From IMG/VR virus record IMGVR_UViG_3300028394_000044, positions 64,001 to 128,000 of that record: a DNA stretch of 64,000 nucleotides. The stretch is one strand, 5' to 3'. This DNA is from a virus. Shown here in pieces: positions 22,577 through 60,948 of this stretch (within the stretch, counting starts at the first letter, position 1; each line of letters begins with the position of its first letter). The notes under the pieces are model-generated. The model saw nothing but the letters and a program-made list of their open reading frames with translations. It was not told the origin of the DNA and did not search any database. The position numbers were made by a program, and so were the translations under genes.

Positions 22577-23818
22577 ATGTTTCAAGACAAATCATTACTC
22601 GCAGTTGCCGAAGCTGTTAAAAAAGTTTGGGCGGAAGGCTTAACAGATAAGCAAAAAAAGATTGATAAAAATCACAATAATAAAATTGATGGTCAAGACT
22701 TGGCTATTTTGCGTAAAGAAGGTTGGGATGATATGATGAAGGCCGTTAAAGATAGAGCGGCTCCACAACCAAATGGTGGTGCAGGTAAGAAGCAAGGTTC
22801 TGCTTACGGTGGTTCTAAGCAAAAAGATGAAAAGCCTTTGAAAGAAGAAGATGCATACAGCAAAGATCGCTATGCAGTTAAAGATGGTAAAGCTATGAAA
22901 GATAATCCTACACACAAGGGTCATCCTGACTATGCAGATAAGCCACATCACGTTTGGGCTACAAGTCCTGAAGAAGCGATGAAAAAAAAGAAGACTGTTA
23001 AAGAAGAAGCATCACAAGCTGAATTCACTGCTGAATTGAAGAAAGCTCAAGCAAAAGCTCAAGGCAAAGAAAAAGCTGATGTTGCAAAGCCTGCTGTGCA
23101 AGCTGTGCAAAATGAACAGACACACACGCAAATAGAAGTATTTAACTTGAATGACGCTAATGGTGTTAAGCGTTCAGTTATTGATTTGGAAGAAGCTAAA
23201 TCTGGTTACGATTTGTATCACTCAATGTATTCTGGTGCAGTTCAACATGGATTAGCTCATCACGAAAAAAGTGGTTTGACAGTTGATCCTGATGATTATC
23301 ATGATAAAGTAACTGTTGGTCCAAAAAAACCTTCAGAAGGTAAAACTGTTAGTCACAATATTAAAGCAACAAATGCTAAAGGTGAATCACATATGATTCA
23401 TATGCAAGTCCACAATAAAGGTGGAAATAAACCTTACGAATTGAATACTTATTCTAGCAAAGTTCCAAAAAAACAAGTTAAAGAAGAACATACTGGTCTA
23501 CATCCAGATGCACAAAAAGTATTGAAGCATATTAAGCCGGAACATCAATCTAAGTATCATGCCGATCTAACACCAAAAACATACAAGGGTGATTATGCTG
23601 ATAGATCAGCAATCCTTGATGCTGCTGAAAGAGCAGGTCATTTAAAAGAAGAAGTTGAGCAAATTGATGAACGTCATTTAACTTCTGCTGAATCTGAAAA
23701 AATGGAAAAGAATGTTAAGTCTATGAAAAAAGGTTTATCTGGTTTTAAAGAACGTTATGGCAAAGATGCTAAATCTGTGATGTATGCGACGGCAACAAAA
23801 CAGGCCAAGGGAGAGTGA
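22577..23818 (+). CDS. Modular Lys/Glu-rich putative internal virion protein
   Basis: Recurrent (L/V/I)xE sites, EF-hand-like DKNHNNKIDGQD, C-term VMYATATKQAK. Confidence 0.6.
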   Translation: MFQDKSLLAVAEAVKKVWAEGLTDKQKKIDKNHNNKIDGQDLAILRKEGWDDMMKAVKDRAAPQPNGGAGKKQGSAYGGSKQKDEKPLKEEDAYSKDRYAVKDGKAMKDNPTHKGHPDYADKPHHVWATSPEEAMKKKKTVKEEASQAEFTAELKKAQAKAQGKEKADVAKPAVQAVQNEQTHTQIEVFNLNDANGVKRSVIDLEEAKSGYDLYHSMYSGAVQHGLAHHEKSGLTVDPDDYHDKVTVGPKKPSEGKTVSHNIKATNAKGESHMIHMQVHNKGGNKPYELNTYSSKVPKKQVKEEHTGLHPDAQKVLKHIKPEHQSKYHADLTPKTYKGDYADRSAILDAAERAGHLKEEVEQIDERHLTSAESEKMEKNVKSMKKGLSGFKERYGKDAKSVMYATATKQAKGE

Positions 23819-23819
23819 A

Positions 23820-26084
23820 ATGAGAAGTTTCAAGCAGATTGCAAGTCTTGTCCGAGGTGAGGACATTTCGGAAGAGGGTAAAAAGTCTCTCGGAACAGGA
23901 TGGATGCTGAAGGCTGATCCAAAATTGGGAAAAGCCGTCAAAGATAAGATCGACCTTACTAAAAAACGTCAAGCAACTTATGGTGATAAATCGGCTGGCA
24001 AGTCCATCAAAGAAGATATTTCACTTGATGAAGTAATGTTCAAAAAAAGTCCTTATGGTAGAACTGCGGCAAGTCAACAACGAGCTAAAGATTTGCTGAA
24101 CCCTCCAAAAGAATCAACCGAAACTAAAGCGGATGAAAAGAAAGAGGTTAAAGAAGCTGTTAAGCAACCAACAGGTAAATTGAAAGATGCCTGCTGGACT
24201 GGTTACACTGCTGTTGGTACAAAAATGAAGAACGGTAGAGAAGTTCCTAATTGTGTACCAGTCAAAGAAGATTTTGAGCAACTTGACGAAATGCCAGGTG
24301 CTAACATGGATACACGGGCTGTACATTCTCACCTAAAGAAAAAAGGTTGGTCTTTAAGTCGTACTTCTGGTGGGCATGATGTATTCACCCATCCTAATGC
24401 GGCTCATCATATTCCAGTTCCTCGTCACCGCCAGTTAAAAGCACCTCTGATTAAAGGTATTTTAAAATCCTCTCAGATTAGTGAAGAAACTAAAGATGTT
24501 GGTGAATATGACTATGAAGGTCAAATGGCTCGTACACAATTACAAACAACATTGCGTAATTGTGAAGATTTACTTGGAATGATTAACGATAATGATAATA
24601 TGCCTGAGTGGGTACAATCTAAGATAACCTTAGCTCAAGACTATATCACAACTGTTAGAGATTATCTACAATCAAAAGAGGAACTCGGTGAAGAAGTTGA
24701 TCCTGCACATAAAAAGATTCTAGATAAAGCGAAAACCAGTACACCTAAATCACCTAAAGGTGAATATGATCGCAAGGTTGAAAAGTATCTGAAGAAAAAG
24801 CATGGCATGAAAGAAGAAGTTGAGCAGATTGATGAGTTGTCTAAGAAAACTCTTGGCTCGTATGTCAATAAAGCACTGGACAGCGCAAGAGAAATGCCTG
24901 GCTCTGGCACGAATGCTGAAGCCAGCAAAAAGTCAAAACGTTTCGCTTCTGTTTCTGCGGCTGCATATCGCACACAAGGTCTTGCGCCAAGAAAAGGCAC
25001 TGATATGTTTAAAAAGTACAAAGCTGAAAGTGTTGTGGCGGAAGGCTCATTAGAAGAAGATAAATATGATAAAATGCTAAGAGATTTGGTGAAGGCAAGA
25101 CCTGACTTAAATAAAAAATATGCCAAAGATGTTAAAAGGTCAAAAGATATTGAAAGTGGCAAAGAGTTAAACAAACTTGTTAAAAAGAATCCTGGTGTAT
25201 TGAAAACACACAGTGATGCTGTAAAGAGAGATAAGAAACTAGGTATGGCGGAAGGCCTATCAGAAATGGACAAATCACAAACTCCGCCAGGACGAGACGG
25301 TCACGTAAGTCATGGCACATACGGTTCTAGAGACAAGAAAGATCCGGATGCTGGTAAGAAACAAGTCTACGGCAAAATGGAGCGCCCTGAAAAAACAACC
25401 AAAACGGCATCGGATATTCTTAACAAAGCATTTAATAAAGGTGTGGCAGAAGCTGTGACATATGAGCCAAGTCCGGGTGCTCGTCCAAATAACGCTGGAC
25501 ATACGCTTGTTGGTTTCTCATTTCATTCCGATAACACAAAACATGCTAACATTATGAAGCATGGTGAGACTGGTAAGTATTATGCTGCAGGTGGCAGTTC
25601 TTCACATCCCGTTAAAAGTACCACATTTCACGATACACCCGAAGATGCTGTTAAAAGCAAAAAGTCTTATGTTAAAGAAGAAGTTGGTCAAGCAACAAAT
25701 TCAAATGAAAATCCAAACAAGGGTCGTTTCATGTCTGCACCAGCTAAAAAAGTAATGAAGCCATCACCTATGGTAACTTCAGAGCAATCTGCTTCTGATA
25801 TTGGTCAACCACAAAGAGAAATTCCTCTTGATACAGCTAAAACTGACCACTCCACCGCTATGAAGATAGCTAAGTTGGCTGCACGTAGACAAGCAGGAAT
25901 CAAAGAGGACATGGAAGCAGACAACTCACTAGGTAAAAATGATACTCTTGCTAAACAAAGCCTTAGCAGAACTGCTGGCATTACAAAAGACCTTGCACTT
26001 ACTGGCAAGAATAAAGAAAATGTGAAGAATAAGGAAAAGTTCGAGCCTGAACCAGAACTATCTTCACAAATCGTTAAACCTTAA
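23820..26084 (+). CDS. Modular putative internal virion polyprotein containing a HicA-like domain
   Basis: Modules CWTGY..VPNCVP, HicA (GW..RTSGGH..F.HP..VP.H), EGQMA..PEWVQSKIT.A.DY, DELSKKTLGSY separated by xKEE/xDE/xAEG. Confidence 0.65.
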   Translation: MRSFKQIASLVRGEDISEEGKKSLGTGWMLKADPKLGKAVKDKIDLTKKRQATYGDKSAGKSIKEDISLDEVMFKKSPYGRTAASQQRAKDLLNPPKESTETKADEKKEVKEAVKQPTGKLKDACWTGYTAVGTKMKNGREVPNCVPVKEDFEQLDEMPGANMDTRAVHSHLKKKGWSLSRTSGGHDVFTHPNAAHHIPVPRHRQLKAPLIKGILKSSQISEETKDVGEYDYEGQMARTQLQTTLRNCEDLLGMINDNDNMPEWVQSKITLAQDYITTVRDYLQSKEELGEEVDPAHKKILDKAKTSTPKSPKGEYDRKVEKYLKKKHGMKEEVEQIDELSKKTLGSYVNKALDSAREMPGSGTNAEASKKSKRFASVSAAAYRTQGLAPRKGTDMFKKYKAESVVAEGSLEEDKYDKMLRDLVKARPDLNKKYAKDVKRSKDIESGKELNKLVKKNPGVLKTHSDAVKRDKKLGMAEGLSEMDKSQTPPGRDGHVSHGTYGSRDKKDPDAGKKQVYGKMERPEKTTKTASDILNKAFNKGVAEAVTYEPSPGARPNNAGHTLVGFSFHSDNTKHANIMKHGETGKYYAAGGSSSHPVKSTTFHDTPEDAVKSKKSYVKEEVGQATNSNENPNKGRFMSAPAKKVMKPSPMVTSEQSASDIGQPQREIPLDTAKTDHSTAMKIAKLAARRQAGIKEDMEADNSLGKNDTLAKQSLSRTAGITKDLALTGKNKENVKNKEKFEPEPELSSQIVKP

Positions 26085-47035: not shown

Positions 47036-48046
47036 ATGATGCGTAAAATGGCTACTCTACGGAAGATTGATGCATTGCTGCCTATTGAAGGAGCTGATGC
47101 TATTGAGGCTGCTGTTGTTGGTGGCTGGAAAGTTGTAGTTAAAAAAGGTGAGTTTACAGTCGGTGATTTGGCTGTGTACTGTGAAATCGATTCTTGGATT
47201 CCTACTGAATTGGCTCCATTCCTCTCTAAAGGTAAAGAACCGCGAGAGTATGAGGGTATTAAAGGCGAAAGGCTCAAAACGGTTAAACTCCGTGGTCAAT
47301 TGTCACAAGGTCTATTGCTGAATCTTGATAATGTTTTACAGGATACTAATTCGTTCCAAGAAGGTGATGATGTTTCCGAAGTATTGAATATTGTGAAGTG
47401 GGACCGCCCTATGCCAGCACAATTAGCTGGCATGGCTAAAGGTAACTTTCCATCATTGATTCCTAAGACGGATCAGGAACGTGTTCAAAACTTGACTAAG
47501 GAAATTGAAGCGGCTAAATCATTGCGGTTCGAGGTGACTGAAAAGCTGGAAGGCTCTTCTATGACCGTATACATGATTGATGGCGAATTCGGTGTTTGCT
47601 CACGTAATATGGACTTGAAGCGGGATGAAAATAACTCATTCTGGAAAGTTGCTATTCGTGATAACATTGAATTGAAGATTCGTTCTATGGACATGGACAA
47701 TGTTGCTATTCAAGGTGAATTGATTGGTCCTGGTATTCAAGGCAATATCTATAAACTAGACTCACTGGAATTCTATGTTTTTGATATGTACAGCATTAAA
47801 GCTGGTCAGTACATTTCTCCAAAGATGCGGGAATATTATGCGAATCAACTTAGGATGAAACATGTTCCAGTGTTGATGGTGAACGAAGACCTTGGTACTG
47901 GTTCTATTGATGAACTTCTACAGTGGGCGGAAGGTAAATCTAAGTTGAACCCTAAACAGGAACGTGAAGGTATCGTTTTTAAACAGGTTGATGGTGGAAT
48001 GACTTTTAAAGCTATTTCAAACAAGTACCTTCTTGGAGAAAAGTGA
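47036..48046 (+). CDS. RNA ligase, DRB0094 family
   Basis: N-term OB domain (GADAIE..EIDS..LRGQLSQG), PKTDQER, EKLEGSS, QGE, EGIVFK, FKAIS. Confidence 0.92.
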   Translation: MMRKMATLRKIDALLPIEGADAIEAAVVGGWKVVVKKGEFTVGDLAVYCEIDSWIPTELAPFLSKGKEPREYEGIKGERLKTVKLRGQLSQGLLLNLDNVLQDTNSFQEGDDVSEVLNIVKWDRPMPAQLAGMAKGNFPSLIPKTDQERVQNLTKEIEAAKSLRFEVTEKLEGSSMTVYMIDGEFGVCSRNMDLKRDENNSFWKVAIRDNIELKIRSMDMDNVAIQGELIGPGIQGNIYKLDSLEFYVFDMYSIKAGQYISPKMREYYANQLRMKHVPVLMVNEDLGTGSIDELLQWAEGKSKLNPKQEREGIVFKQVDGGMTFKAISNKYLLGEK

Positions 48047-50678: not shown

Positions 50679-50969
50679 ATGAATGTTTTTTCTGATGGTG
50701 TGAATGATGTTGCTGGTCGTGAATGGTTAATTGGTGCATTGACAAAAGGCACTTTGACTGTCAAGTTTGTAAAATTGGATGGTACAGTTCGGAGTATGAC
50801 TTGTACTTTGGATCCTGCTTTACTTCCGAAATCTGTGAACACAGAAAAACCTAAAGTTGAACGAAAGAAATCACCAGATGTTCTTGCTGTGTATGATACG
50901 ATTGAACAGGGTTGGCGATCATTTCGTTGGGATTCGGTTGAGTCTGTAATTTTTGATTCTAATAATTAA
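50679..50969 (+). CDS. WYL-like/SH3 beta-barrel phage protein
   Basis: VKFVK.DGT.R.M.CTL..WRSFR.D. Confidence 0.7.
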   Translation: MNVFSDGVNDVAGREWLIGALTKGTLTVKFVKLDGTVRSMTCTLDPALLPKSVNTEKPKVERKKSPDVLAVYDTIEQGWRSFRWDSVESVIFDSNN

Positions 50970-50986
50970 ATTTTAAAAGGTAAAAA

Positions 50987-51274
50987 ATGAAATATATTGT
51001 GGAAACTTTGAGTTTGTTTAAGCTGTATCATGTAGTAGAAGCCGAAAATGAGGCTGATGCTATGTTGATTGCAGAAAATGCTGATGATAATTATCAAGAC
51101 TGGCTTGGTATTACTAAATGTGACATTGAAGAATGTACGGATATTAGACTTGAGAAATTAAAAGGTAAAGAATATTTTTTTGACGGTGTTTCCTTTATCA
51201 ATGATGAAGGTTTTATTGCATATAAACATGCTGACGGAAATACTCGTACCATCGATAGTGTTAAAGTAAAGTAA
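50987..51274 (+). CDS. Hypothetical protein
   Basis: MKYIVET..VVEAE motif. Confidence 0.6.
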   Translation: MKYIVETLSLFKLYHVVEAENEADAMLIAENADDNYQDWLGITKCDIEECTDIRLEKLKGKEYFFDGVSFINDEGFIAYKHADGNTRTIDSVKVK

Positions 51275-51329
51275 AAAATATTTTCAAAAAGTCTATTGCC
51301 AAAAGAAAAAAAGCATATATACTAGTACT

Positions 51330-51455
51330 ATGATGAATAAACATTCCTTTAAACAACCAACGCGAATTAATTCGTGGTTAGCCAACTATTGCCTTGAGGA
51401 TTCAAGAGTAATTGGTGAAAGTGGAAAAGGGGTTAGTGAAGGTCGAGACAACTAA
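51330..51455 (+). CDS. Putative leader peptide (41 aa) of tRNA-array attenuator
   Basis: ATG 6 nt after TATACT -10; all 20 amino acids within 29 codons; overlaps antiterminator arm. Confidence 0.65.
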   Translation: MMNKHSFKQPTRINSWLANYCLEDSRVIGESGKGVSEGRDN

Positions 51456-51476
51456 AAGAAGTCTAAACTAATTTGC

Positions 51477-51510
51477 AAACCCCTAGAATCCAAAGTTCTA
51501 GGGGTTTTTT
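51477..51510 (+). terminator. Intrinsic terminator (attenuator candidate)
   Basis: AAACCCCTAGAA-tccaaag-TTCTAGGGGTTT plus T run. Confidence 0.9.
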
Positions 51511-51549
51511 CTTATGTGTTGTTTTTTTACAGCATATTAGAAAAAAGAG

Positions 51550-51606
51550 TTGACAGTTGCATCGCCATCTGTTACAATGAGGTAGTTCTTTAAAAATTTG
51601 TAGAGT
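51550..51606 (+). promoter_or_regulatory. sigma70 promoter plus boxA-like element
   Basis: TTGACA-17-TACAAT then GTTCTTTAAAAATTTGTAGAGT. Confidence 0.7.
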
Positions 51607-51613
51607 AATATTT

Positions 51614-51688
51614 ACCCGGTTAGCCAAGCGGAAAGGCAATGGACTTTGACTCCATGATGCGTAGGTTCGATCCCTCCACCGGGTGCCA
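51614..51688 (+). tRNA. tRNA-Gln(TTG)
   Basis: Cloverleaf, ATGGA-ctTTGac-TCCAT, CCA. Confidence 0.9.
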
Positions 51689-51726
51689 TATTAAAATTCA
51701 TTTAATGAGTGAGTTTCAGTATGTCT

Positions 51727-51818
51727 GGAAAGTAATGCAGGTGGGTTGGTCCGCCGACCAGCCTTGAAAACTGGGTTCTCAGAAATGGGATGGGGTTCGA
51801 CTCCTCTGCTTTCCGCCA
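51727..51818 (+). tRNA. tRNA-Ser(TGA), atypical D-arm
   Basis: ctTGAaa loop, long variable arm, GGTTCGA, GCCA. Confidence 0.8.
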
Positions 51819-51838
51819 ATTTTTAAGGAGTGAATTAT

Positions 51839-52219
51839 ATGTTGTGTGTAAATTTTGAATCCCTATTAGGGAAAGTTTTAAAAGAAGTTGATGTTGATAA
51901 TGATAACATCAAATTTGTTACTGTTGATGGTGAAGTGTACAACATGTACCATGACCAAGATTGTTGCGAGTCTGTTTCAGTTGAGTCCGTTGTTGGTGAT
52001 GTTCAAGACCTGATCGGTGTTCCATTGCTTGTTGCTGAAGAGTCATCGAGCAATGAAAATCCAGAAGGTGCTGAAGTGCCAAATTACCAAGATTCGTTCA
52101 CATGGACATTCTACAAGCTAGCCACTATCAAAGGTTATGTTGACATTCGTTGGTATGGTGAGTCTAATGGCTACTATTCCGAAAGCGTTTCATTGCATAA
52201 AGTGGTAAAAGGAGTTTGA
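51839..52219 (+). CDS. Hypothetical protein within tRNA array
   Basis: H.QDCCE, TWTFY, RW.G.SNGYYSE. Confidence 0.7.
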   Translation: MLCVNFESLLGKVLKEVDVDNDNIKFVTVDGEVYNMYHDQDCCESVSVESVVGDVQDLIGVPLLVAEESSSNENPEGAEVPNYQDSFTWTFYKLATIKGYVDIRWYGESNGYYSESVSLHKVVKGV

Positions 52220-52220
52220 T

Positions 52221-52784
52221 ATGCCATCAGTATTTCTCGTAAGTGACACACACTTTGGTCATGCCGGTGTATGTCGTTTCACAGATTCTAAAACAAATGA
52301 AAAGATTAGACCATGGACGGATCCAAATGAAATGGATGAAGAAATGGTCAAACGTTGGAATGAAACCGTTGGTCCAAAAGATAAAGTGTATCATCTGGGT
52401 GACGTTGTTATTAACCGTAAATCACTTAGCATTATGCATAGGCTGAATGGTGACAAAGTTCTCATCCGAGGTAACCATGATATTTTTCGTGATGATGAAT
52501 ATCGAGTACACTTTCGGGAACTCCGTGCATATCACGTAATGAACGGAATGATTCTTTCTCATATTCCACTTCACCCTGAAAGTCTTGGTCGATTTGGAGT
52601 TAACATTCATGGACACCTTCATACAGGACGTGTTATGAAGGATGAAAAGATTGATACAAGGTACCATTGTGTATGTGTAGAACAAACTGATTTTACTCCT
52701 ATTCTTTTTGAAAATGTTATCAAACGAATCAAAGAAGAAGGTGGTGAAGTAGGATTTAGGAACGGTAACGGTCCTACAATGTAA
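52221..52784 (+). CDS. Calcineurin-like phosphoesterase
   Basis: SDTHFGH, HLGD, GNHD, SH.P, HGHLH. Confidence 0.9.
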   Translation: MPSVFLVSDTHFGHAGVCRFTDSKTNEKIRPWTDPNEMDEEMVKRWNETVGPKDKVYHLGDVVINRKSLSIMHRLNGDKVLIRGNHDIFRDDEYRVHFRELRAYHVMNGMILSHIPLHPESLGRFGVNIHGHLHTGRVMKDEKIDTRYHCVCVEQTDFTPILFENVIKRIKEEGGEVGFRNGNGPTM

Positions 52785-52787
52785 TTT

Positions 52788-52877
52788 GGAGAGTGGGCAG
52801 GACGGTAATGCAGTAGATTGCTAATCTATAGACTATAGTAATATGGTCACAGGGTTCGACTCCCTGACTCTCCACCA
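52788..52877 (+). tRNA. tRNA-Ser(GCT)
   Basis: ttGCTaa loop, long variable arm, CCA. Confidence 0.9.
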
Positions 52878-52883
52878 AAAAAT

Positions 52884-52959
52884 GTAGGTGTGACCCGAAA
52901 GGCTAGGGAACAGATTGCAAATCTGTTTTATGCAGGTTCGATTCCTGTCACCTACTCCA
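52884..52959 (+). tRNA. tRNA-Cys(GCA)
   Basis: ttGCAaa loop, U73, CCA. Confidence 0.9.
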
Positions 52960-52991
52960 GTTGTTAAAAAACAACAACATGCAAATAGATG

Positions 52992-53067
52992 TTGACAAAA
53001 CCTCTGGTTGTGTTATACTCTATTCATGAGTTGAGAAATCAACATGTTCTTTAAAAATTTGTAGAGT
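52992..53067 (+). promoter_or_regulatory. sigma70 promoter plus second boxA-like element
   Basis: TTGACA-16-TATACT; GTTCTTTAAAAATTTGTAGAGT at 53046. Confidence 0.7.
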
Positions 53068-53074
53068 TTAATTT

Positions 53075-53149
53075 ACTCCGTTCGTCTATCGGTTAGGACA
53101 CCGGGTTTTCAACCCGATAAGACCAGTTCGATTCTGGTACGGAGTACCA
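53075..53149 (+). tRNA. tRNA-Glu(TTC)
   Basis: ttTTCaa loop, CCA. Confidence 0.9.
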
Positions 53150-53266
53150 TATTAAAACATATTACAGGTTGGGCAGTATTCGCGGTGCTGCTATTTGGGT
53201 ATTATGAACTAGATAATTACTAGCATCGATACTAAGATACGTAGTATGTTTTAATATGGTAGAAAT

Positions 53267-53341
53267 GCCTTGGTAGCTTAATGGTAAAGCAGGCGACTCA
53301 TAATCGCTTGAGTGGGAGTTCAATTCTCTCTCAAGGCACCA
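53267..53341 (+). tRNA. tRNA-Ile2(CAT)
   Basis: GGCGACTCATAATCGCT anticodon arm as in ileX. Confidence 0.8.
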
Positions 53342-53347
53342 AGATTC

Positions 53348-53422
53348 GGGGGTATAACTTAACGGCTAAAGTATCTGGCTTTTAACCAGGTAATCCGAGT
53401 TCGATTCTCGGTACCCCTACCA
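53348..53422 (+). tRNA. tRNA-Lys(TTT)
   Basis: ctTTTaa loop, CCA. Confidence 0.9.
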
Positions 53423-53433
53423 AAACAATTTTA

Positions 53434-53515
53434 GGAGATGATGCTCTAATGGTAGGGCAGCGGACTGTAACTCCGTGGCTTCGGCAAGTAGGTTCGATTC
53501 CTACCATCTCCACCA
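53434..53515 (+). tRNA. tRNA-Tyr(GTA)
   Basis: ctGTAac loop, variable arm, CCA. Confidence 0.9.
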
Positions 53516-53588
53516 AGCCGAACAGTGTAGCAATACACTCAATGTTTGTTAGTTTTAATGGGTACGTATAGAAACTATCACAAATTTA

Positions 53589-53663
53589 GGTGCGTTCATA
53601 TAATGGTCATTATCTCGGATTGTCTATCCGAAGACGGGGGTTCGATTCCCCCACGCATCGCCA
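53589..53663 (+). tRNA. tRNA-Asp(GTC)
   Basis: ttGTCta loop, GCCA. Confidence 0.9.
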
Positions 53664-53754
53664 ATTTTGTGGCAAGGAAAGTAAAAGGAGAATGGGCAAC
53701 GAAAAGGATTTGAAGCCTTTAGTGGATACCTCACCTGCCATAAATTTTTATTAT

Positions 53755-53830
53755 TCCCCAATAGCTCAGTTGGTAGAGCGTTCCGCTGTTAACGGAAATG
53801 TCGGTGGGTCGGAGCCATCTTGGGGAGCCA
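53755..53830 (+). tRNA. tRNA-Asn(GTT), non-canonical T-loop
   Basis: ctGTTaa loop; T-loop GTCGGAG. Confidence 0.85.
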
Positions 53831-53833
53831 AAT

Positions 53834-54044
53834 TTTGTAAGTGTCAGCAAGTGAAGTCACGCTATTCAGTATTCTTCAAAGGTACTGTATAGTAGAAGGT
53901 TTTGGGTTCAACTCCCACCCGCGGGGAACTGCGGAGGTCTGTAAAGGAGACAAACTGGATGAATCCCAAGTGACGTACCGAGTCCCGGCCGGCTTAATTA
54001 CACGGGTGAATGGTTGCTATAACGATGGGGCAACAACTTACAAA
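53834..54044 (+). ncRNA. Structured ~210-nt ncRNA of unknown family
   Basis: Closing stem TTTGTAAGT/ACTTACAAA, multiple internal hairpins, GC-rich, between tRNAs. Confidence 0.6.
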
Positions 54045-54053
54045 TTCAACATT

Positions 54054-54129
54054 GCCCCGGTGACGGAATGGTATACGTGTTGGTCTTAGAAACCAAATTT
54101 TAGGAGTTCGAGTCTCCTCTGGGGCACCA
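54054..54129 (+). tRNA. tRNA-Leu(TAG), short variable arm
   Basis: ctTAGaa loop, CCA. Confidence 0.88.
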
Positions 54130-54184
54130 AATATCGCCGTGACTGGTGGCGTACAATGAGATAAGTAATCAGTTAACCAAATTT

Positions 54185-54259
54185 GGGCTGTTAGTGATAA
54201 TGGTAGCACAGTGGCTTTGCAAGCCTCGGGCAGGAGTTCGATTCTCCTACGGTCCACCA
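54185..54259 (+). tRNA. tRNA-Ala(TGC)
   Basis: ttTGCaa loop, G3:U70, CCA. Confidence 0.9.
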
Positions 54260-54265
54260 AATTTA

Positions 54266-54340
54266 GCTCTTAAAGCATTGCTGGCGATGCACGGGTCTTG
54301 TAAGCCTGAGAATACAGTTCGATTCTGTATGAGAGCACCA
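54266..54340 (+). tRNA. tRNA-Thr(TGT)
   Basis: ctTGTaa loop, CCA. Confidence 0.9.
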
Positions 54341-54347
54341 AGTTTTT

Positions 54348-54421
54348 CTCCGATTAGTGAAATGGCATCACCCGTGGTTTGGGACCATGAAGCGCAAGTT
54401 CGATTCTTGCATCGGAGACCA
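54348..54421 (+). tRNA. tRNA-Pro(TGG)
   Basis: ttTGGga loop, CCA. Confidence 0.9.
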
Positions 54422-54429
54422 GTTTTTAT

Positions 54430-54500
54430 TGCGGGTATTCAGGGTATCGGTAAGTCTCATAAGCTCTACCTAGTGGGTTCGAATCCCACACCCGCTACCA
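54430..54500 (+). tRNA. Initiator-like tRNA-Met(CAT) with degenerate D-arm
   Basis: 1:72 mismatch, GCGGG acceptor, ctCATaa, canonical T-arm, 71 nt. Confidence 0.7.
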
Positions 54501-54505
54501 GTTTT

Positions 54506-54580
54506 GGTGATATAGTTCAATGGTAGAACACCACCTTCATACGGTGACTGTTGGGAGTTCAAGTCTCTCTATCACCACCA
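54506..54580 (+). tRNA. tRNA-Met(CAT)
   Basis: ttCATac loop, CCA. Confidence 0.8.
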
Positions 54581-54585
54581 AATAT

Positions 54586-54663
54586 GCGTCCTTAGTTCAA
54601 CTGGATAGAGCACCGGGCTACGAACCCGTGAGGTTGGGAGTTCGAATCTCTCAGGACGCACCA
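54586..54663 (+). tRNA. tRNA-Arg(ACG)
   Basis: ctACGaa loop, CCA. Confidence 0.9.
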
Positions 54664-54664
54664 A

Positions 54665-54890
54665 GACCCGTCAGAGTAACGTCTGGCTACTGTGACACGC
54701 AGGAAGTGAAGTGAGTTCGTTACTCAAGTGTGGTACTACTCTTACCGAAGTAGCGTTGGCAATACGAGAATTCTTTTTGGTTGGGAAGCGGGTGGAAGGT
54801 GTGTGTTACAAGGCGTTGAACCGAACGGGGAGCCGAAGTAACAACGGTGCGAGCTGACACACTAAATTACCGCCGCAGAAAGAAAGCATT
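54665..54890 (+). ncRNA. Structured ~225-nt ncRNA of unknown family
   Basis: GC-rich spacer between tRNAs with several complementary segments and no credible ORF. Confidence 0.5.
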
Positions 54891-54892
54891 AT

Positions 54893-54968
54893 ACCCTAAT
54901 AGCTCAGCGGTAGCAGCACCGTCTTGATAAGGCGTAGGTCGGTGGTTCGAATCCACCTTAGGGTACCA
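54893..54968 (+). tRNA. tRNA-Ile(GAT)
   Basis: ttGATaa loop, CCA. Confidence 0.9.
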
Positions 54969-55025
54969 GATTGCACAGTAGTTCTCAAGACTGATGTTAT
55001 TATAAATATCCATAAAGGAGATTGT

Positions 55026-55376
55026 ATGAAGACAATTACATCAGGAAAAAACTACCAAGGATTATTAAAGTTTAATAAGAGTAGAAAATTTCCAACAGAA
55101 GATATTCTTGTTGAAAACTCAAGTTATGCTAGACATAACTTAAAAAGAAGAATATTGGAAGAAAAATTAATTCAATATAAATGTGCATGTTGTAATCTTG
55201 ATAATGAATGGAATGATAAGCCAATTGTTTTACAATTGGATCATATTAACGGTGTAAACAATGACCATAGATTGGAAAATTTAAGGTTTCTTTGTCCAAA
55301 TTGCCATTCACAACAAGACACATATGCAGCTAAAAATAGGTTTAATCCGAAAAGAAAACCTAAAAAATATGTATAA
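55026..55376 (+). CDS. HNH homing endonuclease in tRNA array
   Basis: CACC..LQLDHING..N..LENLRFLCPNCH; own TATAAATA promoter at 55001 and AAGGAG RBS. Confidence 0.9.
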   Translation: MKTITSGKNYQGLLKFNKSRKFPTEDILVENSSYARHNLKRRILEEKLIQYKCACCNLDNEWNDKPIVLQLDHINGVNNDHRLENLRFLCPNCHSQQDTYAAKNRFNPKRKPKKYV

Positions 55377-55377
55377 A

Positions 55378-55451
55378 ATCTCCGTAGTGTAATGGCAGCA
55401 TAAGGATCTCCAAAATCTTTGGTGGGAGTTCGAATCTCTCCGGGGATGCCA
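55378..55451 (+). tRNA. tRNA-Trp(CCA)
   Basis: ctCCAaa loop, GCCA. Confidence 0.9.
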
Positions 55452-55471
55452 AGTTTTTAAAGGTTATCAAT

Positions 55472-55960
55472 ATGAAAAAATTCGATATAAACGAAGTCAA
55501 AGAATTCCTTGCAAAACAAGGACCAAACACCAAAGTATATCTTGGTGCTGACTCTGAAAGAATCAGAGTGAATGAAGTTTGGTATGCTGACTACGCTTTA
55601 GCTGTTGTAGTTCATATTGATGGATGTCATGGCTGTAAGATTTTTGGTTTTGTTGACCGTGAATTAGATTACGACCATAAGAAAAGTAAACCTGCTATGC
55701 GTCTAATGACAGAAGTGTATAAGGTTTCGGAATTGTTTCAATCATTACAAGATGTGTTGGAAGATTATCATGTTGAAGTCCATTTGGATTTAAATAAATC
55801 AGATGAGTTCGGTAGTTCTTGTGTTGTTCAGCAAGCGATTGGTTATATCAAAGGTACATGTAACATGACACCAATGGTTAAACCTGATGCGCCTGCGGCT
55901 TCATTCTGTGCAGATCGTTTAAAACGGATTTTAGCAGAACAAGAATTAGCGACTACATAA
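55472..55960 (+). CDS. RNase H-like YkuK/DUF458 family protein
   Basis: YLGADS, RLM.EV, EVHLD.N, KP.A.AAS..AD. Confidence 0.8.
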   Translation: MKKFDINEVKEFLAKQGPNTKVYLGADSERIRVNEVWYADYALAVVVHIDGCHGCKIFGFVDRELDYDHKKSKPAMRLMTEVYKVSELFQSLQDVLEDYHVEVHLDLNKSDEFGSSCVVQQAIGYIKGTCNMTPMVKPDAPAASFCADRLKRILAEQELATT

Positions 55961-55966
55961 TATTAT

Positions 55967-56040
55967 GCGGGATTAGTTTAGTGGTAAAACGTCATCCTTC
56001 CAAGTTGAAGTTGCGAGTTCGATTCTCGCATCCCGCTCCA
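55967..56040 (+). tRNA. tRNA-Gly(TCC)
   Basis: ctTCCaa loop, TCCA. Confidence 0.9.
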
Positions 56041-56120
56041 TATACAAACACATTTTGATGCCTATAAGATTGTAGATTTGATCGCCTACGATACGGTGCG
56101 TGATGAGTGTGTTTCTATAT

Positions 56121-56194
56121 GCGGGTATGATGTAAAGGTAGCCTGTGACCTTGCCAAGGTTAGTGTGAGAGTTCGATTCTCTCTACCCGCTCCA
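56121..56194 (+). tRNA. tRNA-Gly(GCC)
   Basis: ttGCCaa loop, TCCA. Confidence 0.9.
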
Positions 56195-56215
56195 ATCAAT
56201 TAAAGGTGGTTCATT

Positions 56216-56824
56216 ATGGTTATTGTTCCTGTTTTTGCAACAAATATTTTTATGACAGAGTTAAAACCTGAAGACTATGAATTGGTCCAGGAAGAATTGC
56301 AAAGAGTGTATGATGATAATACACAAAATAAATTATTTAATGATCCGTGGAATAACGGACGTATGAGATTAAGTCACAATGCATTTGAAGGTGATATTAT
56401 AAAAAAATATGACCTCAAAAATTTCAAACGAGTTCTGACTGATGCTGTTGCTTTCTTAAATGAAGATGGTAAAGTTAGAGCGTTTAATGTTGTGAATTCT
56501 TGGATGACAAGCCTGAAAAAAGGCATGTATGCTCATAATCATCAACATATTGCCCCGTATGGTTCGCATATTTCTGGTGTCTATTACTTTAAAACGGCAG
56601 AAGACGATTCACCAATTGTTTTTGAGAATCCAAATTTGTCTAATGTTTGTTTTAGTCCAGCATTAGGTTCTGAAGAAACACTATCATGTAAACCTATTCA
56701 AGGACACTTGCTGATGTTCCCATCTTGGTTGAGACACTATATTGAAACTCAACTTGATGACCGAGAAAGAGTTAGTGTTTCTTTTACTTTAGGTCTAGAA
56801 AATCCATATCTCGATAAATGGTAA
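56216..56824 (+). CDS. 2OG-Fe(II) oxygenase (TIGR02466-like)
   Basis: H.H, ISGVYY, FPSWL.H, R.SVSF. Confidence 0.85.
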   Translation: MVIVPVFATNIFMTELKPEDYELVQEELQRVYDDNTQNKLFNDPWNNGRMRLSHNAFEGDIIKKYDLKNFKRVLTDAVAFLNEDGKVRAFNVVNSWMTSLKKGMYAHNHQHIAPYGSHISGVYYFKTAEDDSPIVFENPNLSNVCFSPALGSEETLSCKPIQGHLLMFPSWLRHYIETQLDDRERVSVSFTLGLENPYLDKW

Positions 56825-56828
56825 TTAT

Positions 56829-56903
56829 GGAGTTGTTAGTTTAGTGGTAAAACCGCGGGTTGTGATTCCGCTATCACGGGTTCGATTCCCGTACTTCTCC
56901 CCA
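56829..56903 (+). tRNA. tRNA-His(GTG)
   Basis: G-1:C73, ttGTGat loop. Confidence 0.88.
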
Positions 56904-56906
56904 AGC

Positions 56907-56981
56907 GCCTTGTTAACTCAGCGGTAGAGTGTCTCCCTTACAAGGAGAAGGTCGGCGGTTCGATCCCGTCACAAGGTACCA
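56907..56981 (+). tRNA. tRNA-Val(TAC)
   Basis: ctTACaa loop, CCA. Confidence 0.9.
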
Positions 56982-56985
56982 ATTT

Positions 56986-57059
56986 GCTCCCATAGTACAG
57001 TGATAGTACACGCCCTTGGTACGGGTGAGACCTGAGTTTGATTCTCGGTGAGAGCACCA
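56986..57059 (+). tRNA. tRNA-Thr(GGT)
   Basis: ttGGTac loop, CCA. Confidence 0.85.
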
Positions 57060-57064
57060 ATTTA

Positions 57065-57140
57065 GCAACTTTAGCTGATGTGGTCATAGCGGTGGTCTGA
57101 AGAACCATTGAAGTAGGTTCGATTCCTACAGGTTGCACCA
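57065..57140 (+). tRNA. tRNA-Phe(GAA)
   Basis: ctGAAga loop, CCA. Confidence 0.9.
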
Positions 57141-57147
57141 AAATTCT

Positions 57148-57223
57148 GCGGATATAGCGCAAAGGTAGAGGCAAGGGACTTAAAATCCCTCAAGTCTGGG
57201 TTCGAATCCCAGTATCCGCACCA
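57148..57223 (+). tRNA. tRNA-Leu(TAA), short variable arm
   Basis: ctTAAaa loop, CCA. Confidence 0.88.
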
Positions 57224-57226
57224 TAT

Positions 57227-57303
57227 GCCCTTGTAGCCCAATTGGTAGAGGCAATGGATTCAAAATCCATTCAGTGTCGGTTCGAATCTGACCAAGGGTA
57301 CCA
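57227..57303 (+). tRNA. tRNA-Leu(CAA), short variable arm
   Basis: ttCAAaa loop, CCA. Confidence 0.88.
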
Positions 57304-57309
57304 CACAAT

Positions 57310-57384
57310 GTCTCTATAGTTCAACGGACAGAATAGGGACCTCCTAAGTCCCGGATACAGGTTCGATTCCTGTTGGAGACACCA
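57310..57384 (+). tRNA. tRNA-Arg(CCT)
   Basis: ctCCTaa loop, CCA. Confidence 0.9.
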
Positions 57385-57429
57385 AATGGTAAACATGTAA
57401 ATAATATATTAACTCTACAAATTTTTTAT

Positions 57430-57504
57430 CTGGCGTTCGTTCAATGGATAGGACAAGATTCTTCTAAAGTCTTTATAGAGGTTCGATTCCTCTACGCCGG
57501 ACCA
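57430..57504 (+). tRNA. tRNA-Arg(TCT)
   Basis: ctTCTaa loop, CCA. Confidence 0.9.
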
Positions 57505-58193
57505 CCAATATAATATTTTTTTAAAACGGCATCAACTAAACTATCGATACTGTTTACGATTTGCACGCCATTACATTCGACTTCTCTAATCGCTAATGGT
57601 ATCTCTGTGCAACCTAATACAATAGATTTTGCACCACGCTCTATTAAACTTTGTATTACAATCATCAATATTGAATGTGCTTGATCTATATTTCCACCCT
57701 TGATTAAATCTATTGCATGTTGAACTAGTGTGTCCATTTCTACTATAGAAGGCACAATACAATCCCATCCAAATTTATTCAACATGTATTGATACAACCC
57801 GAATTCGATTGTGCTTTGGGTTCCTATAATTCCTATGGTTGTATTACTGATGCCTATGGAATTTAATGTATCTGCAACACTATCTACAATGTGTATAATG
57901 GGAACCTCTAATTTAATTAGTTCCTGATACCAAAAATGTGCGGTGTTACATGGTATGACTATTAAATCACAACCTGTAAATTTCAATGCTTGTACACCTT
58001 CTATCAAGTAGGGTAATGGCTCATCATTGCCTTTTCGCATACTTGTGCTACGGTCTGGAATTCTTGGTTCATTCCAAAGAACAAATGGAATATGATCTTG
58101 ATCTTTATTAGCAGGAGTTTTTTTAATTAATCTAGTTATAAACTCTGCACTTGCTGCTGGACCCATTCCACCCAAAACTCCCAACTTTTTCAT
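57492..58193 (-). CDS. Aspartate/glutamate racemase (RacX/YgeA-like)
   Basis: GVLGGMGP, DQDH, PCNTAH, LGCTE (both catalytic Cys). Confidence 0.93.
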   Translation of the reverse strand: MKKLGVLGGMGPAASAEFITRLIKKTPANKDQDHIPFVLWNEPRIPDRSTSMRKGNDEPLPYLIEGVQALKFTGCDLIVIPCNTAHFWYQELIKLEVPIIHIVDSVADTLNSIGISNTTIGIIGTQSTIEFGLYQYMLNKFGWDCIVPSIVEMDTLVQHAIDLIKGGNIDQAHSILMIVIQSLIERGAKSIVLGCTEIPLAIREVECNGVQIVNSIDSLVDAVLKKYYIGGPA

Positions 58194-58258
58194 AACAGTA
58201 CAACCAGTAAAATAATTATTATGATGACACAGAATATAACAGAAGGAAGTCTCATCAT
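58190..58258 (-). CDS. 22-aa hydrophobic micropeptide (not in ORF track)
   Basis: MMRLPSVIFCVIIIIILLVVLL; ATGA overlaps at both ends. Confidence 0.55.
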   Translation of the reverse strand: MMRLPSVIFCVIIIIILLVVLL

Positions 58259-58863
58259 TTTTTAAATAATAAACTACTAGCAACATGCATCACAGCTTGC
58301 TCATTAGCAACCTCATCTGGGTCAGGTTTTGATTTCCATCCAACTGAAATTTGTCCAATAAATGTACCGGGTTCCGCAGGTACACTTATACGACACATAT
58401 ATTTTACGCCTCTTTCAACATAAACGAATCCCATAAAACTTTGAGGTGTTAGGTAATCTTGACATGGTACTTTTCCTGACATCATTGAAATCACATCATT
58501 ATTATTGTCGTAATTTTTAGTCAGTAGACCAACATCTGTGCCATAGTAATCTTTTTCAATTCCACCGCTGCGAGTAGTAAAATAAACTAGCTTGCGCGTG
58601 TTTAATATTGTATTGACTTGAAATACTGCAATCAATTCCGCTTGGCTATATTTCAATATAAAATTTGAGGCTTTTTCATACTCTCCGTTCATATGCGGTA
58701 ATGCTTTTTCGGCACGATAACTTGCCATAAATGCATCTTTTTCGGAATATAAAAACCAACCACCGAATCCAAATACACATAAAATTATAACCGCAAATAG
58801 GCGAAATGGACTCTCGCCTATCCAAGTCAATAAACTAAGAAGTATTTCCTTAGCTTTGTCCAC
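58255..58863 (-). CDS. Single-TM protein with periplasmic domain, T4 T-holin-like architecture
   Basis: Short N-term, one TM, ~160 aa C-domain with two Cys and YMCRISVP..FIGQISVGW. Confidence 0.5.
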   Translation of the reverse strand: MDKAKEILLSLLTWIGESPFRLFAVIILCVFGFGGWFLYSEKDAFMASYRAEKALPHMNGEYEKASNFILKYSQAELIAVFQVNTILNTRKLVYFTTRSGGIEKDYYGTDVGLLTKNYDNNNDVISMMSGKVPCQDYLTPQSFMGFVYVERGVKYMCRISVPAEPGTFIGQISVGWKSKPDPDEVANEQAVMHVASSLLFKK

Positions 58864-60124
58864 CGATAGCTACCTCTTTATCACAGACAAATGCTGTTAC
58901 TGCAATATTACCGTGTACATGACTTGCTGTGCGAATCATATCCATTAATGGATCAACTGCAATTAGCAAAACTAATACAGCTTCACTTGGTAGTTTTAAC
59001 AAGTCACAAACAACTGCCACGGTTGCAACAGTAAGGATACCTGTTGTACCTGCACTTGCCAAACCAGCCAATATACTACCAAACAGTACTACTAACAATC
59101 CCACAGCACCTAATGGTGAATCATAAATGTTAGCAATAAACACTGTAGCAATCGCATAATAAACAATACTGCCAATTCTGTTGACTGTAAAACTCAGCGG
59201 AACAGTTAGTTCAACACCACCTTTGTCAAAATGCAATCTGTGTAATGCTTCCTGTGCGTATGGAATACAAGCTAATGAACTGCGTGAACTAATAGCAACA
59301 ATCAATGTTTCTTTAGTTTCTTTAATAACAGTCATCAAACTCAACCCACTACGCATCCATATTACCACAGTACCTGCAATAACCACTAATACTCCACCAA
59401 CAAACTGTTGAAATACAAAATCAAACATGGTCATAAAGATGCCCACCCCAACTTTGCCAACTTGACTGCTAATCATTGCTAACAATGCGAATGGTAAGAA
59501 GTAGTTTAGGAATTTAAAGATACTGATACTTGCCTGTTGAACACTCTTTAATACTTCAACCAACATACGTTGACCTTCTGTTTGTAAATGCCCTAATGCA
59601 ACACCAAAAATTAAACAGAAGATAACAATCTTCAAACTCTCACCATTGTTTAGTGTGTTGAAAATGTTTTCTGGAATAAATTTCTCTGCCATCTTACCTG
59701 CACTGATTGGAGGTGATGTTGGCATTGGCTCATGTAACGTGATGTTTAAATCAGTTCCTGTGTCCTTGTTGTTCACTAGTACACCAAATTCTGTTTTCTT
59801 TTGCGGAGTCATTTCTGTGCCTGTAACCAACACAGTTCCTACACCAATGACCGCGGCTAAGAACATACTTCCTATAAATCCAATAATAATTTTACGTATC
59901 AGTGTTTCACTACCTTCTTTTTGTAATAGTCCTATAATACCAACTAGAATAGTTGCCAACAAGAATGGTAGCACAACTACTTTTAATAAACTGATGTAGA
60001 TACTACCAATGCTGTCAAGGTTCATACTAAACTCAGGGGTATAAACTCCACCAAGAATACCCAGTACAATTGAACCAAGAATAGTCCACGGACTAGTTAA
60101 GAAGGTTTTCAAGTGGGAGATCAT
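58850..60124 (-). CDS. Dicarboxylate/amino-acid:cation symporter (DAACS, GltP-like)
   Basis: IP.NIF, SSRSSLACIP, PL..TVN, D...DMIRTA; multi-TM. Confidence 0.92.
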   Translation of the reverse strand: MISHLKTFLTSPWTILGSIVLGILGGVYTPEFSMNLDSIGSIYISLLKVVVLPFLLATILVGIIGLLQKEGSETLIRKIIIGFIGSMFLAAVIGVGTVLVTGTEMTPQKKTEFGVLVNNKDTGTDLNITLHEPMPTSPPISAGKMAEKFIPENIFNTLNNGESLKIVIFCLIFGVALGHLQTEGQRMLVEVLKSVQQASISIFKFLNYFLPFALLAMISSQVGKVGVGIFMTMFDFVFQQFVGGVLVVIAGTVVIWMRSGLSLMTVIKETKETLIVAISSRSSLACIPYAQEALHRLHFDKGGVELTVPLSFTVNRIGSIVYYAIATVFIANIYDSPLGAVGLLVVLFGSILAGLASAGTTGILTVATVAVVCDLLKLPSEAVLVLLIAVDPLMDMIRTASHVHGNIAVTAFVCDKEVAIGGQS

Positions 60125-60948
60125 TTTTTATCCTTTTTCTCTGCTTTATATCTGTCCATCAACTTTTTAGTGTCAATGTTGTTATATTCATTTCTAATAA
60201 CATAATTAACCATACTTAGCAATTGAATTGCTTTTGGATTAACTGCCACTGCAATATAGTCCACACTGTCAGAAATTGTAATTGTCTTGGTGCTGATTGC
60301 AGCATCTGGCTTTTCAAAACTAATTTTCTTAATTTCAAACTCGTCACGGTAAGCAGCAGCAATATCTCCACGTGTGACTCTATCAATGATTACATCCCAC
60401 TTTTCTTCAGGAAGAAATGTTGCATTAGGAAAATTAATTCGTGCAAATGTATCATAGCTGGAGTTTTTGATGAAACTTATTTTTCCATTGAAATCACGAA
60501 TCACTTGATATGTTTCTTTACCCTGACTGTTTTGACTGAGCCATAACCTGTTGATAATTAAACTCTGTCTTAGTTTGATATACGGCTCACTAAATCTAAC
60601 AACTTGTAAACGCGGACCAGTTACGGATAATTTACTAACCGCAATGTCTGCTCTACCGTCTCTAACTTGTTCCACAACCTCAGCAAAACTTTCTGCATCT
60701 CGTCTAAACTGAACAGGAACTCCAAGTAATACACCAATTCGTTGTGCAATTTCAACGTCAAGACCATGAATGTTATCTCCTTCTCCTGAAAAGAAAGGAG
60801 GAACATCTTTTTTGGTCATTGCCACAATAAGAACATTGGCTTTCTTAATTGCAGCGATATCTGGTGGCAAAGGAATAGTTGATGTGGGTAATTGTGCATA
60901 CGTAGCCGCAATAAACAACAAAGCCAACAAAGCAAATAATTTTTTCAT
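60121..60948 (-). CDS. Periplasmic amino-acid-binding protein (SBP family 3)
   Basis: Signal peptide, PPF, GLDVEIA, G.ADIAVS.LSVT..R...V.FS.PY. Confidence 0.9.
   Translation of the reverse strand: MKKLFALLALLFIAATYAQLPTSTIPLPPDIAAIKKANVLIVAMTKKDVPPFFSGEGDNIHGLDVEIAQRIGVLLGVPVQFRRDAESFAEVVEQVRDGRADIAVSKLSVTGPRLQVVRFSEPYIKLRQSLIINRLWLSQNSQGKETYQVIRDFNGKISFIKNSSYDTFARINFPNATFLPEEKWDVIIDRVTRGDIAAAYRDEFEIKKISFEKPDAAISTKTITISDSVDYIAVAVNPKAIQLLSMVNYVIRNEYNNIDTKKLMDRYKAEKKDKK

Follow-up and report, generated by a model that had tools for sequence, protein, structure and literature searches.

Among the leader-peptide attenuators of enterobacteria, thrL (Thr/Ile) and ilvL of ilvGMEDA (Ile/Val/Leu) are multivalent; trpL, hisL, leuL and pheL are further members of this group. 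Leader-peptide control also governs an aminoacyl-tRNA synthetase operon, pheST of E. coli, through the pheM attenuator. T-box riboswitches bind uncharged tRNA via a specifier codon and the T-box motif, without translation. The purpose of phage tRNA genes, and the way in which their timing and dosage are set, are still debated; the reasons currently put forward for their carriage are compensation of codon usage, substitution for host tRNAs as these decay, and evasion of defences that cleave tRNA. A further relevant system is the leaderless polycysteine short ORFs of mycobacteria, on which a stalled ribosome frees a ribosome-binding site (Canestrari et al., bioRxiv 10.1101/834739). A full-text literature search found no description of attenuation of tRNA arrays. 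Our results suggest that a short cassette at the head of a phage tRNA region is likely to be a ribosome-mediated transcription attenuator.

The window analysed here is a stretch of 64,000 nucleotides (bases 64001-128000 of a 162,299-base virus record); its products include a DNA polymerase of family B, a DnaB-like helicase, a ribonucleotide reductase and an RNA ligase. The cassette and the tRNA array behind it lie on the plus strand. A consensus scan found a sigma-70-like promoter, P1 (TTGCCA-16-TATACT, 51296-51323, 10 of 12 matches), with its -35 hexamer at 51296-51301, a 16-nt spacer and its -10 hexamer at 51318-51323; both hexamers are kept in the relatives L001 and L083. Six nucleotides, AGTACT, separate the -10 hexamer from an ATG at 51330, the usual +1 position. 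This ATG opens a 41-codon ORF (51330-51455), evident from the sequence and the ORF listing and kept in all relatives, which is probably leaderless. Its first 29 codons already include all 20 amino acids and sample about 23 of the approximately 27 anticodon species of the downstream array. Each amino acid is used one to five times, there are no runs of any codon kind within 51330-51455, and synonymous codons are varied (Ser TCC/TCG/TCA/AGT, Gly GGT/GGA/GGG, Arg CGA/AGA, Leu TTA/CTT). RNAalifold on eight relatives places a hairpin, CGCGAA-TTAA-TTCGTG (51361-51376), within the ORF; two of its pairs are changed on both sides, L093 having GAC/GTC for GAA/TTC, and speculatively it may serve as an RNA polymerase pause site.

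Leader codons 33-37 form the 5' arm of the antiterminator (51428-51440), delineated by duplex energy, the minimum-energy fold and family comparison. Twelve of its 13 positions, two through G-U pairs, can pair with a 3' arm at 51472-51484, which overlaps the 5' arm of an intrinsic terminator (51477-51510) detected by a terminator scan. The terminator consists of a 13-bp stem, a 5-nt loop and a T-run, with stem pairs spanning 51477-51507 and the T-run ending at 51510; no other strong terminator is present where the tRNA region begins. The two predicted pairings are mutually exclusive: the duplex of 51428-51440 with 51470-51484 (-15.0 kcal/mol, z = -2.1 versus shuffles) sequesters 9 of the 13 terminator-arm bases, and the terminator hairpin has an energy of -18.1 kcal/mol. 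When 51325-51520 was folded, the antiterminator was present in the minimum-energy structure and the terminator in the centroid. Beyond the terminator a consensus scan found a second promoter, P2 (TTGACA-17-TACAAT with TG, 51550-51578), which is nearer consensus than P1 and probably the stronger of the two. The tRNA array itself runs from 51614, the start of the first tRNA, to 57504 and comprises 27 tRNAs called by ARAGORN and one tRNA-Ser-like gene found with Rfam. An earlier note on this DNA had placed P1, the ATG, the 41-codon ORF with its 20 amino acids and varied codons, and the 12-of-13 pairing at the coordinates that we obtain; it had counted 29 tRNAs for an array which, at 27-28 genes, does cover all 20 amino acids as it had stated.

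The cassette resembles the enterobacterial leaders in its combination of a promoter, a short ORF with codons matched to the product, an intrinsic terminator and a competing antiterminator, and by analogy the position of the ribosome would choose between the structures. In this respect it would work like the multivalent leaders of the thr and ilv operons. However, the targets here are tRNAs rather than biosynthetic enzymes, and each of the 20 amino acids appears only once or at a few positions, whereas the enterobacterial leaders use runs of one to three kinds. Two trp-type features, region 1 and the codon runs, are missing, and the mRNA, unlike those of the enterobacterial leaders, is probably leaderless. 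We found no sequence or Rfam relationship between the cassette and these leaders. The pheST/pheM system shares with the cassette the control of a component of the translation apparatus by the decoding speed of its own cognate codons, but it involves one amino acid and a protein-coding target as opposed to a whole tRNA set and up to 20 amino acids. Similarly, the polycysteine ORFs are leaderless sensory short ORFs at the 5' end of an operon from which a stalled ribosome remodels the downstream RNA; they sense one amino acid and act on translation, whereas the cassette has all amino acids and an intrinsic terminator before non-coding genes. The likeness to T-box riboswitches lies in terminator readthrough tied to tRNA status and in translation-related targets, but the cassette has no T-box motifs or Rfam match and does have a conserved ORF. 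A search of 51000-58000 against Rfam at E <= 1 returned tRNAs only, plus a chance-level match of NsiR1 to the terminator (E = 0.41).

The presence of all 20 amino acids in so short a peptide is improbable given the amino-acid frequencies of this phage, with a chance of 1.2e-4 for 29 codons, a value that stands before multiple testing, and 7.7e-3 for 41 codons. Three of the 110 six-frame ORFs of 35-50 codons within the window also reach 20 amino acids, so coverage in the window alone is suggestive only, and the significance has to be carried by comparative data. Relatives in IMG/VR were reached by three routes, namely through flanking genes, through the terminator motif alone and through the whole tRNA regions of five related contigs. 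A promoter, short ORF, antiterminator and terminator stand directly upstream of tRNA arrays at approximately 30 distinct loci. As these family members are homologous and were mostly found via the shared terminator motif, they are not fully independent. Start codons were set by our own rules at some loci (GTG in L036, L134 and L144; an internal ATG in L161). Three loci that met the automatic rule (L025, L135 and L151) were excluded after inspection as probable non-members, having ordinary composition and a weak or absent antiterminator. All 20 amino acids occur in 32-46 codons in 12 leaders (that of the window and L083, L093, L097, L106, L005, L016, L036, L127, L134, L144 and L155), and 19 occur in three further leaders. 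The relatives' arrays that were fully fetched carry 19-20 amino acids. By BLOSUM62 global alignment, leader peptides of homologous loci are 17-56% identical, and 17-40% in pairs outside three subfamilies. The homologous loci do, then, keep both the ORF and its 20-amino-acid coverage while the peptide diverges. For instance, L083 has lost Phe and Asp at the positions used in the leader of the window and has regained them elsewhere in the peptide. When residues shared with a relative were held fixed and the others redrawn, the chance of keeping 20 of 20 was 0.003-0.4 per lineage. As a control we took 159 short ORFs from the same position before 354 control terminators: the z score for distinct residues had a mean of +2.5 for leaders versus -0.7 for these ORFs (Mann-Whitney 1e-10), none of which reached z >= 2.

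The leader frame is open in every relative, at 21-50 codons, with indels in frame, and substitutions between related leaders show a mild third-position excess (71/75/114 at codon positions 1/2/3). At least eight relatives, including L093, L097, L106, L005 and L222, share the layout of a -10 hexamer, six nucleotides and an ATG; this promoter spacing indicates that the leader transcript probably has a leaderless start. Other relatives have a purine-rich 5' UTR of approximately 35 nt before the leader. The closest relative, L081, is 93.7% identical to the window over the leader ORF, 100% over the terminator and 98-100% from the terminator onward; the leader evolves faster than its surroundings and yet keeps its coverage. 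Identity to L081 rises in steps, from 83% in the upstream gene (50987-51274) through 94% in the leader to 98-100% from the terminator on, which suggests a recombination boundary at the cassette. Among GenBank phages, a DNA search with 50900-51900 gave matches to tRNA-Gln only and no close relative, and the 95-aa upstream protein had no match. The best cultured relative by its phosphoesterase gene, Synechococcus phage BUCT-ZZ01 (59% identity), was considered as a model for the cassette and set aside because there are no tRNAs near that gene.

Judged from pairing energies across the family, the antiterminator is real. The best duplex between the 3' end of the ORF and the 5' arm of the terminator has a mean energy of -17.0 kcal/mol (z = -3.7) in 29 leaders and of -7.1 kcal/mol (z = -0.14) in 361 terminators without tRNAs (P = 2e-18), with z <= -2 in 28 of the 29 leaders versus 5% of the controls. 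The arms also co-vary, which had been proposed as a check in the earlier note: swapped arms pair less stably than cognate ones, by 5 kcal/mol (permutation P < 5e-5), and in L083 one G-C to A-T change is joint in the antiterminator arm, the terminator 5' arm and the terminator 3' arm. No member of the family has a weaker antiterminator than the window, with the z score of -2.1 and the -15.0 versus -18.1 kcal/mol given above. Across the family the arm ends between 8 nt past the stop codon and 21 nt before it, and at most 16 nt before it except in L216, so that a terminating ribosome could reach it. In most relatives the stop codon is at -8 to +4 nt relative to the arm, and a terminating ribosome would be expected to mask the arm fully. 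The stop codon in the window lies 11 nt beyond the arm and masking would therefore be partial; the 5' half of the arm would be just outside a ribosome parked at the stop codon. A trp-style region 1 or anti-antiterminator was sought in 22 leaders, and no upstream partner for the arm was found beyond chance (mean z = -0.08). One candidate, a 7-bp helix of 51377-51383 with the arm suggested by RNAalifold, was rejected as weak and rich in G-U pairs. The lack of a region 1 and of a 1:2 hairpin predicts readthrough, not super-attenuation, for a leader that is not translated. The cassette should, on these structural predictions, behave as a three-segment switch in which readthrough is the default and completed translation leads to termination.

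The composition of each leader follows its own array. Relatives with partial arrays provide the clearest case, and 13 such arrays were compared, including three blocks of a 149-kb phage and four blocks of a 288-kb phage. The leader cores are enriched for the amino acids of their own array (Fisher P = 3e-27), the array amino acids present in the array's own leader amounting to 12.74 of 13, and none of 50,000 permutations of leaders among these arrays reached the observed match. In the 149-kb phage, the block for G, I, Q, R, V and M has the distinctive leader run IISRIIGQGQGQVI, the block for P, N, D, A and Y has ANINIANNYP..NPDYD, and the block for S, F, M, R and W has SRSSRSRSWSSRSSS; leader composition is likewise block-specific in the four blocks of the 288-kb phage. 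Every tRNA block in these phages has its own leader written in its own amino acids (L241, L242 and L245 on the 149-kb contig G006; L246, L247 and L249 on the 288-kb contig G010). Unlike the leader in the window, those of partial arrays have codon clusters, such as SRSSRSRSWSSRSSS or IIRMRIIR. As a purely descriptive count, 85 of 102 relevant leader codons are readable by the anticodons of their own array under strict wobble. For instance, AGA is the only Arg codon used where tRNA-Arg(TCT) is in the array, and three Ser tRNAs divide the Ser codons between them. There are exceptions: L134 combines a 20-amino-acid leader with only six tRNAs within 4 kb, G and Q are missing in L171, and the leader of L205 has no Cys. 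The leaders of the multi-block phages match either an uncultured 636-kb phage record only or nothing, and a segment of G010 is 100% identical to that record, LR756504.1. At L244 (G006:C1:61800-66000), ARAGORN calls tRNAs with the anticodon cta (amber suppressor-like) and with four-base anticodons cgca, which hints at suppressor or frameshift tRNAs in the 149-kb phage.

These compositions are best understood if each leader is taken as a roster of the array behind it, and the 20-amino-acid leader before a 20-amino-acid array in the window is the limiting case of this rule. The quantity sensed is more likely to be decoding rate or tRNA supply than amino-acid starvation, because the leaders of partial arrays shrink to their own array. 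The earlier note had read the geometry as that of ribosome-mediated attenuation, which the family antiterminator, the co-varying arms and the match between leader and array all support, and had proposed a general sensor of translation stress. The sequence comparisons favour such a sensor, in a form refined from starvation as such to decoding rate or tRNA supply, and all the computational checks put forward in that note gave results in line with its reading.

We envisage that transcription from P1 would begin with the A of the ATG, so that the mRNA would be leaderless, and that a ribosome would translate the 41-codon leader while RNA polymerase advances to the terminator. If decoding is fast, the ribosome at the end of the ORF would cover 51428-51440, the 13-bp terminator would form and transcription would stop at about 51510. 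If the ribosome is delayed in the first 29 or so codons, or never loaded, 51428-51440 could pair with 51472-51484, sequestering the base of the terminator stem, and the polymerase would enter the tRNA array. As codons 1-29 hold every amino acid and about 23 of the approximately 27 anticodon species, slow decoding of almost any codon class should raise transcription of the tRNAs. The outcome would be a negative feedback loop matching tRNA supply to demand, and the phage would probably make more tRNA whenever any codon is read slowly. Sensitivity to a mild shortage may be low, since no amino acid forms runs and each is present only one to five times. In this lineage P2 would drive the array independently of the attenuator; because it is downstream of the terminator and nearer consensus, the attenuator may control only part of array transcription here. 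This caveat, raised in the earlier note, is real for the lineage of the window, and P2 is present in the relatives of approximately 160 kb, but it does not extend to the whole family: there is no promoter between the terminator and the first tRNA in L103-L105, L084, L087, L088, L134, L171 and L184. The first tRNA of relatives without a second promoter begins 6-40 nt after the T-run, and there, with no promoter intervening, the terminator would gate the array directly.

Several other explanations of the cassette have to be weighed against attenuation by a translating ribosome. An unlikely one is an RNA switch that acts independently of translation, as a leader binding a protein, a small molecule or, in T-box fashion, a tRNA, or as an sRNA released at the terminator, with the open frame as a by-product. 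The alternative structures do exist whatever the translation status, there is a conserved hairpin inside the ORF, and released attenuator RNAs can act in trans elsewhere (e.g., rnTrpL; PMC6614838). Against such a switch, no Rfam family, whether T-box, leader or other, matched the leader at E <= 1; every relative retains an open frame, 21-50 codons long and with in-frame indels; the ATG is at a fixed distance from the -10 hexamer or behind a purine-rich spacer; and it is the amino acids of the leaders, not sequence motifs, that track the tRNA sets. The same tracking is left unexplained if the ORF is an ordinary small gene with a functional 41-residue peptide, whose hairpin terminates either the gene itself or an upstream operon and whose amino-acid diversity is incidental. 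We consider this quite unlikely. Peptide motifs within subfamilies (KQPTRI.SWLA.YCLE in the leaders of the window, L083 and L093; (E/D)YRS..NW elsewhere), the mild excess of third-position substitutions and the second promoter behind the terminator would all fit an ordinary gene. However, such a gene would account neither for the conserved, co-varying pairing of the 3' end of the ORF with the 5' arm of the terminator nor for coverage of 20 amino acids at 17-40% identity, and the ORF diverges faster than the flanking terminator (93.7% versus 100%).

It is also conceivable, if very unlikely in our judgement, that the cassette depends on translation but obeys another logic, the ribosome blocking Rho or RNase, or serving only to synchronise with the polymerase, so that stalling lowers expression of the array. 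The direction of regulation is read from geometry only, and occlusion by the ribosome would be partial in the window, with its stop codon 11 nt beyond the arm. Nevertheless, the stop codon of most relatives falls inside the arm or immediately behind it (-8 to +4 nt), which is the classical layout in which finished translation terminates transcription, and no anti-antiterminator is present. Barely credible, finally, is a spurious ORF that happens to stand between a promoter-like site and the terminator of an upstream operon. The region has no excess of promoter-like sites (37 observed versus 30.8 expected), and the 3 of 110 small ORFs in the window with 20 amino acids show that such coverage does arise; all of the comparative results speak strongly against chance, namely coverage, the antiterminator and the match between leaders and arrays. 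Ribosome-mediated attenuation is thus the reading that we prefer.

Other features of the tRNA region and its surroundings were also observed. A tRNA-like gene at 51727-51814 on the plus strand was not called by ARAGORN; its Rfam score of 33 bits, as tRNA-Sec-like, falls below the threshold. Judged by eye, it is a tRNA-Ser that has the anticodon TGA, an extended variable arm and an anticodon stem closed by a C-A mismatch, and it would be a reader of the TCA and TCG codons of the leader. Directly before the first tRNA is a 21-nt motif, GTTCTTTAAAAATTTGTAGAG (51585-51605, plus strand), which is present also in relatives. It has two exact copies in the window (the other at 53046-53066) and none in shuffles, and both are a few bases 3' of a sigma-70-like promoter and about 8 nt 5' of a tRNA. 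Variants of this motif, CTCTTTAAAAATTT, were found before the first tRNAs in relatives, and it may be a processing or leader signal of tRNA transcripts. Right after the array, the minus strand carries the gene (58850-60124) for a protein of the sodium:dicarboxylate symporter family (PF00375, E = 8e-65); it is an unusual phage cargo and is accompanied by same-strand ORFs at 57492-58286 and 60121-60948. Elsewhere in the window, two large multidomain proteins are encoded at 19930-22257 and 23784-26084, one of 775 aa with cytidylyltransferase-like and Zeta-toxin/AAA_33 kinase-like domains and one of 766 aa with an internal HicA toxin domain. An RNA ligase gene (PF09414 plus a PHA02142 OB-fold; 47036-48046) is situated 3 kb upstream of the array. 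The ligase may repair tRNAs against anticodon nucleases. It is the sole hint of a link between the cassette and anticodon nucleases such as PrrC and PARIS, and that link is speculation.

We put forward a wider proposal, tentatively and with considerable doubt. A leader holding 20 amino acids could act as a decoding test strip that detects the loss of any tRNA species, including loss by anticodon-nuclease cleavage or by decay after host shut-off, and that replies within seconds with the full set of phage tRNAs. Such a circuit would be both an inducible, self-limiting counter-defence and a homeostatic device, and it might be general to tRNA-bearing phages, each leader being the roster of its own array.

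If the proposed mechanism is true, ribosome-mediated attenuation, which is known for amino-acid and synthetase genes, would apply to non-coding genes as well and would include a sensor for the full set of 20 amino acids. Annotators would gain a rule for spotting functional mini-ORFs in phage tRNA regions, and synthetic biology a compact sensor of general translation capacity. If the leader reports decoding speed for the tRNAs behind it, phage tRNA expression would be demand-controlled, and ideas on the role of phage tRNAs would become testable by simple reporter and in vitro assays.
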